A stretch of 64,000 bases of DNA from positions 6,480 through 70,479 of the forward strand of contig JAZDOK010000001.1 in assembly GCA_043798715.1 (NCBI GenBank), in the 5' to 3' direction. The translations under genes were made by a program, and so were the position numbers. The DNA comes from a bacterium (lineage in GTDB: Bacteria; Vulcanimicrobiota; JAZDOK01). The notes beneath the pieces were generated by a model that saw nothing but the letters and a program-made list of their open reading frames with translations, was not told the origin of the DNA and ran no database searches. Positions 18,745-25,283 of the stretch are shown here, piece after piece (the stretch's first letter is position 1; each line of letters begins with the position of its first letter).

Positions 18745-20580
18745 TCATCTGTAGTCCCCTATCACCTCGAAGGCGGCCCAGTAGAAGGGATTGGCATATT
18801 TTTTATCCTTATGAAGAAGCGAAAGCTGGGCGTTGCGAAGGGCTTCGGCCTTGCTCCCTTTCCCGCTTGCCAGCTCCTTGTAGAACTCCACCATGATCTC
18901 CTTTGTCTCGCGGGAGGGAACGCTCCAGAGGGAAAGACACACACTAGATGTTCCCGCGTAAAAAAGTGCCGTCGAAAAGCCAACCATCCCTTCCCCGCCT
19001 TTCACCCGGCCCAAACCCGTCTGGCAGGCGGACAGGGTTATGAGATCCGCATCAAGATCCATCGAAAGAAAGTCCTCGACTTTAAGAAAGCCCGGGGAGT
19101 TCTCCCCCGTCAGGGCGATGCACGAAAGCCAGGGATTTACCGCATCCACCAGACCGTGGGTGGAGAAGAGGATATAACGGTAAGACTTCATATCGGGTGA
19201 TTTGGCCCTCTCCTCAGTGGCCGCCGGACCGGCATAAACAACGGACGGCTTGTCTGGCGATTTCAAGGAAGGGCTTTCCACCAGGGCGTAATCCGGGAAT
19301 AACGTGGCAATGCTCTCCGCCTCAGCTTTCGTATCGGGCAGAGGCACCAGGTTAAGGCCGCTGTCTTTGTAATAGGCGGAAAGATTAAATCCGCCCCGAG
19401 TGACGAGTTCCGAATCCTCCACCGCGACAGCTTTCCCTTTTTCTTTCTGGTCAGCAGGACCGAATACGGGATCGGCAAAGGCGACGAGTTTCTTTTCCCG
19501 CTTCCAGCGGGATCCCGCCGTTGGCGGCTGAGTGGCGCTTCTTTCTGCGTCTCTTCCCTTGGCCTGGAGCCGGATGGTATCCAGAAGCGCCAGGGAGGGA
19601 ACATAACTTACTGCATAATCCTCCACCAGGAAGCGGCAGTCGCTGTAATCCGCTGGAGTTCCGGCTCCGGAACGGGAGCCGAGAATAAGGGCGTTGAAGG
19701 GAAGATAGGATAAAGTCCCATCCGGGACGACGAGAAGATGCTTGACGCCCTTCAGCAGGCTCCTTGCTTCTTTCGGGATGAGTAAATCGGCGAGAAAATT
19801 GCCCACTTTGATGTTGATCTCAGGAGACGAAGAAAGGTCTCCCTTCTCCATCGGCGCTCTATATAGGCGGATTAACCCTTCCAGCCCGATTGATGATTTA
19901 TCCTTGTCAAAACGGGCTGGCAATATTTTGTTGGCCACCTCTTCATCCATCCCGGCCATATCCCTGGGGAGCTTAGACGCAACAGCGATACGGAAAGCCT
20001 GAATGGTATCCGACTTCAGGACAAAGAGAATGCTTTCTTCCGGCAGGACTACATATTCCAAAACAGCAGTATCCACAGGAATGTCTTTCTGGATTTCACT
20101 GGCTTTCTTGAAATTCGGCTTCTGATATTTCCCGATGAGGGATTTTTTTATCTCGTATTCTATCTGGTTTCTCCGAAGCTCAAGCTCCTCTATTTTCTTC
20201 CTGATTTCCTCTTTTTGGGCGCCTGTCAATGATAATTCCCTGGCGTGTAAATCAGAGATCTGCTTTTGCAGGCTCCCATCTTCAACTAAAAGTCCAGCCG
20301 GGGCTTTTTCCTTCAGATTCGCATTTCTCTCCGAAAGCAGATCCAGGGTTGTCCGGGCCTTTCCCGCTTCGGAGAAATGGAAGGCCGCTTCGAGATCCGC
20401 CTTTTCAGGCTCTTTGGCAGAGGCCCAGGCTGATATTTCGGGTTGAGAAAGAGCCTCCTTTTTTAGTGAAAGGCTGACAAGAAATCTTGAAAGGTAGGAA
20501 TAAACCTGGGAAGGCTCCTCGAATACCCCCATTTGGGCCTCTTTCCCCAGAACAAGTCCTCCTTTTTCTTCTGCTAATTC
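18745..20580. repeat. about 1.8 kb direct repeat (copy 1) shared by the 3' halves of the two CHAT genes
   Basis: The encoded proteins are near-identical from GVFEEPSQVYSY… to the C-terminus. The second copy lies at about 21948-23800. Boundaries are approximate. Confidence 0.7.
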
Positions 20581-23800: not shown

Positions 23801-25283
23801 AAGTCGAATTCGCTCCCTGAAAATTGCCTTTTCCTTCGTAGGCCCTGGCCAGGCCGAGGGAAATCCACCAACCTCTTATCTGCTGCAGGGCGCGATTATA
23901 AAATTCAATCGCCTGGTCATAATTTTTCAGGCCTCTTTGGGCGTCTCCCATATTAGCATAACAGATAGCCTCGTCGCTTTCTCTTCCTTTGACTTTCCCG
24001 TACATCTCCAGGGCCAGATTCTGGTACTTTATCGCCTCGTCATATTTCCCGATGTTTTCCATCTTTACGCCTATGTTCTTATAACAGTCAGCCTGTTCCC
24101 GTTCGGTCCCTTTTACTTTTTTGTATATTTCCAGGGCCATGTTCTGGTATTTCAGTTCCTCTTCGTCTTTGCCCATGTCACCCAGTACGTCGCCGATATT
24201 TATATAGCAGTCAGCCTGTTCCCGTTCGGTCCCTTCCGACTTTTTATATATTTCCAGAGCCATCTTCTGGCATTTCAATTCCTCTTCGTGTTTACTCATA
24301 TCACCCAGTATCACGCCGATATTCACATAACAGCCGGCCTGCTTGTTTTCCGTCCCCTTTATTTTTTTAAACATTTCCAGGGCCAGGCTCTGATTTTTTA
24401 TCGCTTCCTCGTATCTGTTCTCCTCATATAACACATTGCCGATGTTCTTGTAACAGGCGGCCTGCTCTTCTTCCGTACCGGGGAGTTTCCTGAACATTTC
24501 CAGCGCGAGATTCTGGTGTTTTATCGATTCCTCATGTTTTTCCAGGTTTCTCAGAGCTATGCCGATATTCTGGTGGCAGCCGGCCTGGCCTCCTTCGGTT
24601 CCTTTTATTTTTTTCAACATTTCCAGGGCCATGTTCTGATATTTTATTCCTTCCTCGTATCTTCCCATTCTGTCCAATGCCACGCCGATTTTGATGAAGC
24701 AGCCGGCCTGTTCTCCTTCGCTCCCGGGTATTTTCTTGAGCAATTCCAGGGCCAGATTCTGATGCTCGATCTCCTCGTCATATTTTCCGATATTCCCCAG
24801 AGCCGAGCCGATGTTTTTATGGCAGTCCACCTGTTGCGCTCCCGTTCCGGGCATTTTCTCGTACAATTCCAGCGCGAGACGTTCGTTTTTAATACCTTCC
24901 TCATATCTGCCCATATTGCTTAATGCCACGCCAAGAAACCCAAGACAGGTGGCCTGCAGGCTTTCCATCCCGGAAATTTTCTTTAACAATTCCAGGGCCA
25001 TATTCTCGTTTTGTATACTCTCCTCAAATTTGCCCGTCTGGCTTTGTATCCCGCCTATAAATCCATGGCAAATAGCCTGTAGTTTTTCCGTCCCGGGAAT
25101 TTTCTTTAGAATTTCATTGGCCTTTTCCAATGATTGAAGCGCTTCAGCCAGATTCCCCTTCTCAAAAAGTCCCATTCCCTGCATGCACAAATTTTGTGCT
25201 TCTTCGAAATTCTGGGCAAAACCGACCCCGAAAATCATGAAAACCAGGACAAAAGTTATTACACCCATTTTTACCGTTTTCAT
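21948..25283 (-). CDS. secreted TPR-repeat protein with C-terminal CHAT (caspase-like) protease domain, paralog B
   Basis: Signal peptide (…FGVGFA|QNF) and about ten 42-aa TPR-like units. The C-terminal ~610 aa are >90% identical to paralog A, including the FSTHG/LSACQTG dyad. Confidence 0.75.
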   Translation of the reverse strand: MKTVKMGVITFVLVFMIFGVGFAQNFEEAQNLCMQGMGLFEKGNLAEALQSLEKANEILKKIPGTEKLQAICHGFIGGIQSQTGKFEESIQNENMALELLKKISGMESLQATCLGFLGVALSNMGRYEEGIKNERLALELYEKMPGTGAQQVDCHKNIGSALGNIGKYDEEIEHQNLALELLKKIPGSEGEQAGCFIKIGVALDRMGRYEEGIKYQNMALEMLKKIKGTEGGQAGCHQNIGIALRNLEKHEESIKHQNLALEMFRKLPGTEEEQAACYKNIGNVLYEENRYEEAIKNQSLALEMFKKIKGTENKQAGCYVNIGVILGDMSKHEEELKCQKMALEIYKKSEGTEREQADCYINIGDVLGDMGKDEEELKYQNMALEIYKKVKGTEREQADCYKNIGVKMENIGKYDEAIKYQNLALEMYGKVKGRESDEAICYANMGDAQRGLKNYDQAIEFYNRALQQIRGWWISLGLARAYEGKGNFQGANSTYVKAIAVSEEKREMALGREARMGVFEEPSQVYSYTARFLVNLAGQKKPLPKSELSAWASSKEPEKAELEAAFHFAEAGKARTTLDLLSERNANLKEKAPAGLLVEDGSLQKQISDLHARELSVMGAQREEIRKKIEELELKRSQIEYEIKKSLIGKYQKPNFKKASEIQKDIPPDTAVLEYVVLPEESILFVLKSDTIQAFRIAVASKLPRDMAGMDEEVANKILPARFDKDKSSIGLEGLIRLYRAPMEKGDLSSPSEVNVKVGKYLADLLIPKEARILLKGVKHLLIVPDGTLSYLPFNALILGSRAGAGTPADYNDCHFLVEDYAVSYVPSLALLDTIRLQAKDRSPGKKLVAFADPVFGPADQKEKGKAVASAANGGIPLEAGMETGELVTRGGFDLSAYYKDSGLALVPLPDTKDEAESIAALFPDYVLVESPSLKSPDKPSVVYAGPAATTEKAKSPDMKSYRYILFSTHGLVDAVNPWLSCIALTGEKQAGEVSPGFLKVEDFLSMDLDADLITLSACQTGLGRVKGGEGMVGFSTALFYAGTSSVCLSLWSVPSRETKEIMVEFYRELASGKSNKAEALQNAQLSLIRKDKKYANPFYWAAFEVIGDYK
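23960..25120. repeat. intragenic 126-bp periodic repeats encoding 42-aa TPR-like units (paralog B)
   Basis: As for paralog A. Boundaries are approximate. Confidence 0.6.

Follow-up and report, generated by a model that had tools for sequence, protein, structure and literature searches.

A predicted pair of exported TPR-CHAT proteases and their divergent TPR partner at a syntenic locus of a Vulcanimicrobiota bacterium

CHAT proteases are executioners in cytoplasmic bacterial immunity, as in Craspase, SAVED-CHAT, and gasdermin activation, and to our knowledge almost nothing has been reported on the many CHAT proteins that carry export signals. Here, two genes of the latter kind (A and B) and a divergently oriented gene encoding a second type of tetratricopeptide repeat (TPR) protein (the partner) were analyzed in a stretch of 64,000 nucleotides, termed the window, from a bacterium of the Vulcanimicrobiota lineage JAZDOK01 (GenBank assembly GCA_043798715.1, contig JAZDOK010000001.1, positions 6480 to 70,479, forward strand). 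A preliminary description of this DNA, made from the letters alone, had called the class poorly characterized, and the one studied periplasmic TPR-CHAT protein that we found is DdvA; its report presents a membrane-anchored anti-sigma factor with a periplasmic TPR-CHAT region, proposed to relay envelope signals by autoproteolysis (PMC11506125). A and B are adjacent on the minus strand and encode 1035 and 1111 residues, exactly as first described. Both are annotated "CHAT domain-containing tetratricopeptide repeat protein" in the source metagenome-assembled genome (MAG), more than 574 TPR-CHAT relatives were confirmed in GTDB species genomes, and no functional study of the exported subgroup was found in the literature; their class is large and annotated, yet unstudied. 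What appears to be new is not the proteins but the module that they form with the partner and a pattern of effector swapping within it, the window copy being a CsgG-like, two-protease variant. We lean slightly toward the interpretation that A, B, and the divergent, predicted exported TPR protein constitute one functional module, namely a ligand-gated extracytoplasmic protease with two sensor paralogs. The features of the locus are as follows.

18745..21852, minus strand: gene A, 1035 residues, predicted exported TPR-CHAT protease, extra paralog (open reading frame [ORF] with translation, Pfam)
21766-21852, minus strand: predicted signal peptide of A, residues 1-29 (n-h-c heuristic)
20686-21669, minus strand: TPR array of A, eight 41-residue units, residues 62-389
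18748-20445, minus strand: conserved C-terminal block of A, residues ~470-1035
18754-19803, minus strand: CHAT domain of A, residues 684-1033 (Pfam)
19156-19158 and 19024-19026, minus strand: catalytic codons of A, His899 and Cys943
21948..25283, minus strand: gene B, 1111 residues, predicted exported TPR-CHAT protease (ORF with translation, Pfam)
25215-25283, minus strand: predicted signal peptide of B, residues 1-23 (n-h-c heuristic)
23892-25121, minus strand: TPR array of B, ten 41-residue units, about residues 55-464
21957-23015, minus strand: CHAT domain of B, residues 757-1109 (Pfam)
22374-22376 and 22227-22229, minus strand: catalytic codons of B, His970 and Cys1019
21853..21947, minus strand: B-A spacer, 95 nt, with a GGAGGG ribosome-binding site ahead of the ATG of A
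25284..25419, no strand: divergent intergenic region between B and the partner, 136 nt (sequence)
25418-25391, minus strand: sigma-70-like site for B, TTGCCG-16-TGnTATGAT, inside that intergenic region (promoter scan)
25420..26967, plus strand: partner gene, 515 residues, predicted exported CsgG/FlgO-like and TPR protein
residues 1-26 of the partner, plus strand: predicted signal peptide (n-h-c heuristic)
25489-25833, plus strand: CsgG/FlgO/LpoB-like domain of the partner, about residues 24-138 (Pfam)
25945-26964, plus strand: TPR region of the partner, family-defining, residues 176-515
26680-26685, plus strand: Thr421-Arg422 of the partner, in a gap-rich linker

Both domain types of the preliminary description were recovered in A and B by Pfam. 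The CHAT domain (PF12770) matched with expectation values (E) of 1.3e-61 in A and 9.2e-62 in B, scoring 209 and 209.5 bits where the cut-off is 24 and covering profile positions 2-289 or 4-289 of 289, and TPR_12 (E 4e-56 and 2.7e-59) and TPR_10 matches extended across the N-terminal 400-500 residues. The His/Cys dyad was intact in each protein (motifs FSTHG and LSACQTG; His899/Cys943 in A, His970/Cys1019 in B), and both catalytic columns were invariant in an alignment of 70 homologs. The arrays are TPR arrays as described, but the measured period is 123 nt, that is, 41 residues rather than the 42 first reported, with eight units in A and ten in B. A conserved cysteine recurs in seven of the eight units of A and in all ten of B (motif A-x-C-Y/H-x-N-I-G; 20686-21669 and 23892-25121); such repeated cysteines are unusual for proteins that leave the cytoplasm and could reflect redox or metal chemistry or an envelope that is anaerobic or reducing.

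Signal peptides were called with a heuristic script (n-, h-, and c-regions, -3/-1 rule) rather than with a trained predictor; A, B, and the partner all display the Sec-type combination of a positive n-region, a hydrophobic h-region of 15-20 residues, and a small-x-small cleavage motif. In A and B, a basic n-region precedes a hydrophobic stretch of 16-18 residues and the cleavage motif (with a slash at the cut) AFA/Q or GFA/Q. The signal of A has a net charge of +3 (four Lys/Arg, one Glu), the h-region IMLVLFLTSFFLMSLT, and AFA/Q; that of B has a charge of +2, an h-region of 18 residues, and GFA/Q; and that of the partner has a charge of +2, an h-region of 20 residues, and AFS/K. Signal-like N termini were also present in 65 of 120 database relatives and in most of 86 genome loci, with lipobox-like ends in several relatives. 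The Sec signals of the preliminary description were thereby recovered, and the heuristic call together with conservation in relatives suggests that A and B are exported, with the TPR-CHAT regions outside the cytoplasm.

AlphaFold2, given the 70 homologs, modeled residues 470-1035 of A with a predicted local distance difference test (pLDDT) score of 89.9 and a predicted template modeling score of 0.90; an earlier model from an 11-sequence alignment was discarded (pLDDT 62). Fold matches of the retained model, given as first and second value columns separated by a semicolon, were led by Csx29 of Craspase (1.3e-13; 26.1 / 25.4), followed by separase (9e-10; 24.7 / 22.4), DdvA (6e-10; 17.6), and gingipains (7e-6 for R; 18.9 for K / 18.6 for R), and metacaspase appeared in the second column (11.8) and was unlisted in the first. 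The C-terminal part of A and B, as modeled for A, has a caspase-hemoglobinase/separase fold. By sequence, phmmer with the C-terminal part returned no match among PDB sequences, and a profile search of PDB sequences returned Csx29 as its sole match, weakly and around the dyad (E 4e-4), DdvA being absent at E<=1. A and B share the separase/Craspase/DdvA-type architecture and belong to none of those families.

The pairing of a TPR-CHAT gene with the partner recurred well outside this lineage. The ~320-residue TPR region of the partner is 31-34% identical over 300-345 residues to the partners of L008 and L090 (E 3e-52 and 2e-51; L-numbers denote genome or metagenome loci). The partner lies directly upstream of, and co-directional with, TPR-CHAT in L008 (Phycisphaerales, TIR_2 type), L009 (Hydrogenedentota), and L088 and L090 (metagenomes, DUF4062 type), and adjacency of the two was seen in L008, L009, L088, L090, L093, L094, L095, L098, L101, and L102. 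A metagenome search made from the partner side yielded 18 loci, among them CsgG-like partners in other loci; all seven of the intact, assessable strong matches outside the lineage itself adjoined a TPR-CHAT gene, and the other strong matches were truncated at contig ends, apart from one that was disrupted. Paired TPR-CHAT genes also occur elsewhere: in L093, they flank the partner and are 61% identical over the C-terminal ~1000 aligned residues, one of them with added ankyrin repeats, and in L101 both lie downstream of the partner. The preliminary description had pointed to two neighboring genes, a TolB_N-TPR gene and one of 533 residues, as possible conserved companions. The former, the TolB_N/CsgG-like TPR gene, is the conserved partner, but the latter stands outside the module, since tblastn of the CsgG-like N-domain and the 563/533-residue neighbor against 80 distant genome loci gave matches in L001-L004 only. 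A literature search found no description of an exported TPR-CHAT protein paired with this partner. The partner and the exported TPR-CHAT protein apparently make up an undescribed module that is conserved in several bacterial phyla, and we regard the architecture, export, and module, taken together, as very probably correct.

Neighbors of the module in relatives include genes of conflict type, namely STAND NTPases, RelA_SpoT-RyR proteins, NUDIX genes, and toxin-antitoxin genes. Large RelA_SpoT and RyR proteins adjoin DUF4062-type pairs in L090 (11831-14590), L098 (3174-6239), and L101 (3493-6051), and may be a third component of the DUF4062 variant.

The partner of the window was matched by the Pfam families CsgG (E 1e-09), FlgO (E 1.4e-05), and LpoB (E 1.7e-04) in addition to TPRs, and its NCBI name is "FlgO family outer membrane protein". 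A word-indexed protein search with the partner returned 5 proteins, and an exhaustive HMMER search over 1.84 billion cluster representatives was used instead. It gave about 793 matches at E<=1e-30, the top ones mostly generic giant TPR proteins; counted as family members were single-stretch, full-length matches only, which amounted to about 25-30 (clusters at 50% identity). The TPR region is shared, and the N-terminal domain varies: 22 scanned representatives comprised five with DUF4062, four with TIR_2, five with a CsgG-like domain, and four with Peptidase_C14. DUF4062 with one hydrophobic helix is found in L009, L088, L090, L095, L098, L101, and L102; TIR_2 with one hydrophobic helix in L008; a signal peptide with a CsgG/FlgO-like domain in the window, L094, and L096; and a signal peptide with a Peptidase_C14 caspase and a FlgO-like domain in L093. 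In the TIR and DUF4062 versions, the helix lies between the N-domain and the TPRs, an arrangement in which the TPRs and the exported protease would share one side of the membrane; the predicted topology is coherent in this respect in every variant. Within a gap-rich linker of the TPR region, all 15 sequences compared keep Arg422, and 14 of them keep Thr421 as well, making Thr421-Arg422 a candidate cleavage or docking site. Arginine at P1 would fit separase, gingipain R, and metacaspases.

The 3′ halves of A and B had been taken for near-identical over 1.8 kb and ~610 residues, a pattern ascribed to recent duplication or gene conversion. Alignment at the DNA level did reveal a sharp switch in identity, near residue 470 of A and 545 of B, but not near-identity. 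On the 5′ side, A and B are ~65% identical in DNA, with saturated synonymous divergence (dS) and a nonsynonymous divergence (dN) of 0.32. On the 3′ side, over ~1.7 kb (roughly 565-580 codons), identity is 86.9-87.9% in DNA and 90.5% in protein, with dS 0.49-0.52, dN 0.05-0.06, and dN/dS ~0.1, as expected of old copies whose 3′ halves are conserved under purifying selection. The four C-terminal halves (A, B, L002, and L001) are roughly equidistant (dS 0.46-0.67), which rules out recent duplication or conversion of these halves: the A-B value of ~0.49 matches the distance to the single-copy alleles of two other strains and exceeds housekeeping dS to the nearest strain (0.13-0.22) by a factor of 2-3. 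The N-terminal arrays differ in copy number and sequence, as described, but not by point diversification. In DNA, units A1-A7 share 72-83% identity among themselves and no more than 75% with any B unit, and the terminal units alone correspond between the arrays; the array of A differs from that of B because its units have been homogenized with each other. This indicates an array probably rebuilt by internal unit amplification or homogenization rather than a diverged copy of that of B. Nor did the proposed fast diversification of a recognition array hold, as orthologs differ no more in the array than in the protease half (dN 0.034 versus 0.049; dS 0.20 versus 0.46).

Related lineages from metagenomes (L001; L002-L004) carry the same gene order, namely a PilB-like ATPase, a 533-residue membrane protein, the CsgG-like TPR gene, TPR-CHAT, small variable genes, AlaRS, and HisRS, and both lineages have a single TPR-CHAT gene. 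The divergent spacing between this gene and the partner in L002 is the identical 136 nt. The N-terminal part of B is 91-93% identical in protein to the gene of the relatives (P0003, P0004), and that of A is ~56% identical to every relative, its C-terminal part being 86-92% identical; by these comparisons, B is the ortholog of the single gene and A the extra copy. Housekeeping dS from the window is 0.13-0.22 to L002 and, for the flanking AlaRS and PilB-like genes, 0.82-0.94 to L001. Set against the latter values, dS of only 0.23-0.25 to L001 for the partner gene (25420-26967) and the TPR array of B (23700-25283) indicates that the two have probably been exchanged between diverged lineages. Gene A arose either by a duplication older than the L002 split, with loss there, or by import of its protease half from a divergent strain. 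Both junctions of the module are variable, since L001 has an AAA_14/DUF4143 ATPase gene and a 50-residue ORF inserted between the partner and TPR-CHAT (8656-9955) and a different pair of small genes, with a faint DUF6036 match, in the downstream slot that a PIN/HTH pair fills in the window. A third paralog family (P0005 in L005-L007, and P0006; 939 and 881 residues, about 60-64% identical) sits elsewhere in the relatives' genomes, where it follows a class-A beta-lactamase-like gene.

The segment had also been called an AT-rich island. Its lower composition was borne out: relative to the 37 ORFs of at least 150 residues in the window (mean GC 0.566, SD 0.036; mean GC at third codon positions [GC3] 0.673, SD 0.072), GC is 0.478 in A, 0.500 in B, and 0.505 in the partner, and GC3 is 0.517, 0.585, and 0.591. 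These are three of the five lowest values of each, with comparably low ones in just two ORFs at the right end of the window (62390-63262 and 63417-63998). The profile is thus not flat and the dip is real; it is, however, uneven, with GC falling to 41% in the TPR array of A and 46% in that of B but staying at 52-53% in the C-terminal parts, and the low-GC block reaches 26967, past the end of B, to take in the partner gene. The island interpretation was only partly borne out: the composition is deviant, but the locus is syntenic and the site occupied in L001 and L002-L004, ARAGORN found no tRNA gene in the window, and a Pfam scan of flanking ORFs revealed no integrase. A, B, and the partner are a compositionally distinct, recombining three-gene block at a fixed locus, not a classical island. 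In its full form, the earlier account, with a recent tandem duplication or gene conversion that keeps the protease halves near-identical and lets the arrays diversify fast inside a horizontally acquired island, is improbable. It explains the tandem paralogs, the sharp step from ~65% to ~87-92% DNA identity, and GC and GC3 below those of flanking genes, and it can appeal to the low dS of the partner and array as proof that allelic exchange happens. It does not accommodate C-terminal halves as distant from each other as from the alleles of other strains, an array that is not the faster-evolving half between orthologs, units of A that evolved in concert, or a syntenic site lacking a tRNA gene in the window and an integrase in the scanned flanks.

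Returning to the ligand-gated module, the mechanism of regulated cleavage by which it might operate is drawn by analogy and is put forward tentatively. By comparison with separase, Craspase, and the DdvA model, the TPR superhelix would keep the protease inactive, and extracytoplasmic binding of a ligand would relieve this latency. Once active, the enzyme would cut or release the partner, with the Thr-Arg motif in the variable linker as candidate site, and this event would switch on whichever domain the partner carries: in relatives, a cytoplasmic NAD-degrading effector of immune type; here, the exported CsgG/FlgO/LpoB-like domain. With both A and B, a single module would have two ligand specificities. 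A more speculative extension, which we consider doubtful, is that the locus is the two-sensor variant of an undescribed extracytoplasmic caspase-like surveillance system that senses phage, competitors, or damage in the envelope, cleaves the partner at Thr-Arg, and activates a swappable output (TIR or DUF4062 NADase, second caspase, or CsgG/FlgO-like domain). If true, such a system would define a new family of modules, distinct from DdvA and from the CHAT systems of the cytoplasm, that monitor the envelope in the service of immunity or cell death. Should the NADase-linked versions provide defense triggered outside the membrane, bacterial innate immunity would gain a further compartment for sensing.

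Several points weigh against this interpretation. Cutting or release of the partner is pure inference, and the partner of the window, having no cytoplasmic domain, offers no visible signaling route into the cell. The window pair is divergent from the partner, in contrast to the co-directional arrangement in other phyla. Some close TPR-CHAT relatives have no adjacent partner (L089, L005-L007), as has P0013 within 6 kb of upstream sequence, and in a distant Acidobacterial clade the pair-mates of exported TPR-CHAT proteins are kinase-DUF4384 proteins. Of the PADLOC-DB 2.0 models, a generic TPR model alone matched A and B, and neither the CHAT part nor the partner was matched by any; no system could be assigned from PADLOC or NCBIfam. 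No outer-membrane marker was found in the window by Pfam, including ten further ORFs, which leaves "periplasm" unproven. The assemblies are MAGs, and the mosaic divergence could partly reflect assembly chimerism; the lineage is, moreover, deep-branching and uncultured, with an AlaRS ~50% identical to those of named phyla.

Three other readings of the proteins were weighed against the ligand-gated module. A housekeeping role in envelope biogenesis or quality control is unlikely, although suggested by the partner's N-domain, which matches CsgG, FlgO, and LpoB and is named for an outer membrane protein. The proteases would process or degrade envelope proteins (cf. the TPR-protease BepA) and the partner would be an outer-membrane-associated adaptor, perhaps tied to the pilus-type ATPase. 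Purifying selection on the genes and their setting among AlaRS and HisRS, 3.6 kb from the REC-MshEN-T2SSE ATPase gene and syntenic in three lineages, would suit such a role. Outside this lineage, however, the pair is not near pilus or flagellar genes, and other copies have STAND NTPases, RelA_SpoT-RyR proteins, and toxin-antitoxin genes as neighbors; the TPR domain of the partner also occurs in fusions with TIR, DUF4062, or caspase domains; and a family this rare (about 25-30 clusters) and patchy is unlike core envelope machinery. Very unlikely is the proposal that A and B are secreted offensive or nutritional proteases of gingipain type, whose arrays bind prey or host proteins or polymers and whose duplication widens substrate range. 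Export signals are present, but so is the tight linkage to one TPR partner, often membrane-spanning with a cytoplasmic NADase-type domain, and Pfam revealed no dedicated secretion-system genes or sorting domain in A, B, or the immediate neighbors.

Hardly credible is a cytoplasmic defense role like that of Craspase Csx29, SAVED-CHAT, or gasdermin-activating CHAT proteins, with the apparent signals arising from miscalled starts. Csx29 is the top fold match, and it shows weak sequence similarity near the dyad in the profile search noted above and in NCBIfam; however, the NCBIfam Csx29 model (NF041237) scored B at 24.8 bits against a cut-off of 300 and did not match A, and no CRISPR, CBASS, or gasdermin model of PADLOC matched A, B, or the partner. 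The hydrophobic N termini are conserved in orthologs and across phyla, including lipoprotein-type versions, and the partner is itself predicted to be exported or to have its TPRs beyond a membrane helix. A cytoplasmic Craspase-like role is contradicted by these data.

Transcription signals and the immediate surroundings of the locus were also cataloged. A and B are probably cotranscribed, since the GGAGGG site precedes the ATG of A and a terminator scan of the spacer (21853-21947) detected no strong terminator. Rfam at gathering thresholds gave no match in the window. Neighbors of A and B in the window are AlaRS, the PIN/HTH pair, the CsgG-like TPR protein, an unassigned membrane protein, and the PilB-like ATPase. 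Further features are listed below.

19496..19528, minus strand: 33-nt segment, copy in A, palindromic core GCGGGATCCCGC
22641..22673, minus strand: 33-nt segment, copy in B, palindromic core GCGGGATCCCGC
18697..18715, minus strand: perfect 8-bp hairpin GTCGGGGG-ATA-CCCCCGAC, directly past the stop codon of A
18348-18623, minus strand: HTH_17 antitoxin-like gene, downstream of A (Pfam)
17956-18351, minus strand: PIN_3 toxin-like gene, downstream of A (Pfam)
18682-18655, minus strand: promoter-like site of the PIN_3/HTH_17 pair

The 33-nt segment is 100% identical in A and B, within surrounding DNA that is ~88% identical. The copies lie on opposite sides of a conserved 73-nt block, at different insertion sites and in different reading frames; they fall in low-confidence (low-pLDDT) surface loops of the model and are absent from the L001 and L002 orthologs. 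The segment looks like a recent short templated or mobile insertion. Past the stop codon of A, the hairpin is probably the transcript end. It overlaps the motif GACAGCCCCG, which was found beside the pair at 18713-18722, where the preliminary description had placed it, and which has three copies in the window (also 1722-1731 and 53926-53935) against 0.28 expected; hairpin and motif may be a repetitive extragenic palindrome-like or terminator element. The neighboring PIN/HTH module described earlier was likewise found, as the PIN_3/HTH_17 pair.

Beyond the partner, a 563-residue ORF (27056-28747, minus strand) probably starts, like its counterparts in relatives, at an internal Met that would give 533 residues. 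It was matched by no model of Pfam, NCBIfam, or PADLOC, contains Gly/Ala-rich hydrophobic C-terminal segments, and is conserved in close relatives only. The following gene (28929-31013, plus strand) encodes a PilB/GspE-type ATPase with an N-terminal response-regulator receiver and MshEN, and is conserved in L001 and L002; MshEN is a domain that binds cyclic di-GMP. An MmeI/Eco57I-type (type IIG) restriction-modification gene (31441-34146, plus strand) lies 6 kb away and adjoins a small ORF (31015-31419, plus strand); the syntenic gene there in L001 and L002 is annotated DUF6941. The restriction-modification gene and the PIN/HTH pair lend the locus a mild defense-island flavor. Elsewhere in the window, a 618-residue ORF without Pfam match (10207-12063, minus strand) has unannotated genes of 611-612 residues at the syntenic position of relatives, and a 1098-residue protein (47002-50298, plus strand) combines a spermine/spermidine-synthase-like domain with subsequent TPRs. 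In the distant Acidobacterial clade, genes for a Ser/Thr kinase-transmembrane-DUF4384 protein, a secreted DUF4384 protein, and an exported TPR-CHAT protein follow one another in a conserved order (at about 5400-8700) in L010, L014, L016, L018, L019, L029, L031, and L036 as well as some 20 further loci. In some of the Acidobacterial loci, the CHAT gene is followed downstream by a response-regulator gene, and a zf-HC2 anti-sigma-like gene adjoins the CHAT gene in four other loci (L012, L032, L034, and L080).

For the window itself the result is modest, an old, selected pair of paralogs at a recombining yet syntenic locus, and it corrects the notion of a recent duplication. The locus nonetheless provides a testable handle on exported CHAT proteins: a small module of protease and TPR partner, a candidate cleavage motif, and a natural series of swapped N-domains.

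Compared with known systems, the likeness to DdvA lies in the TPR-CHAT architecture, and the differences in its context. DdvA has its N-terminal zinc anti-sigma domain and its membrane helix in one and the same polypeptide and is coupled to an extracytoplasmic function (ECF) sigma factor, whereas A and B are predicted to be soluble exported proteins in which cleavable-type signals are followed directly by TPRs and a separate TPR protein is the pair-mate. Neither an anti-sigma (zf-HC2) domain nor an ECF sigma gene was present among the neighboring window genes scanned with Pfam. Csx29 acts in the cytoplasm in complex with Cas7-11/gRAMP, and its substrate is Csx30; nothing comparable is apparent for A and B, Cas7-11/gRAMP and Csx30/31 being absent from their scanned neighbors, and A and B differ further in their long arrays of 41-residue units and their export signals. 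Separase is eukaryotic, nuclear or cytoplasmic, and much larger, has no TPR_12-type array, and is 12-16% identical in sequence. The generic CHAT-TPR annotation class (PF12770 with TPR_12) covers A and B and is silent on export, partner, and paralogy. On the partner side, DUF4062 ("NIR") is reported in 2026 preprints as a TIR-like NADase in anti-phage defense (bioRxiv 10.64898/2026.05.01.722283 and 10.64898/2026.09.04.749371), and the words CHAT, transmembrane, and periplasm are absent from the three DUF4062 papers searched. The partner family meets the DUF4062/"NIR" and TIR NADase defense proteins (Swarozyc, Evangelion, Avs2 effectors) in other phyla, where DUF4062 and TIR_2 are its commonest N-domains; the partner of the window, in contrast, has neither and carries instead a predicted signal peptide and a CsgG/FlgO/LpoB-like domain.

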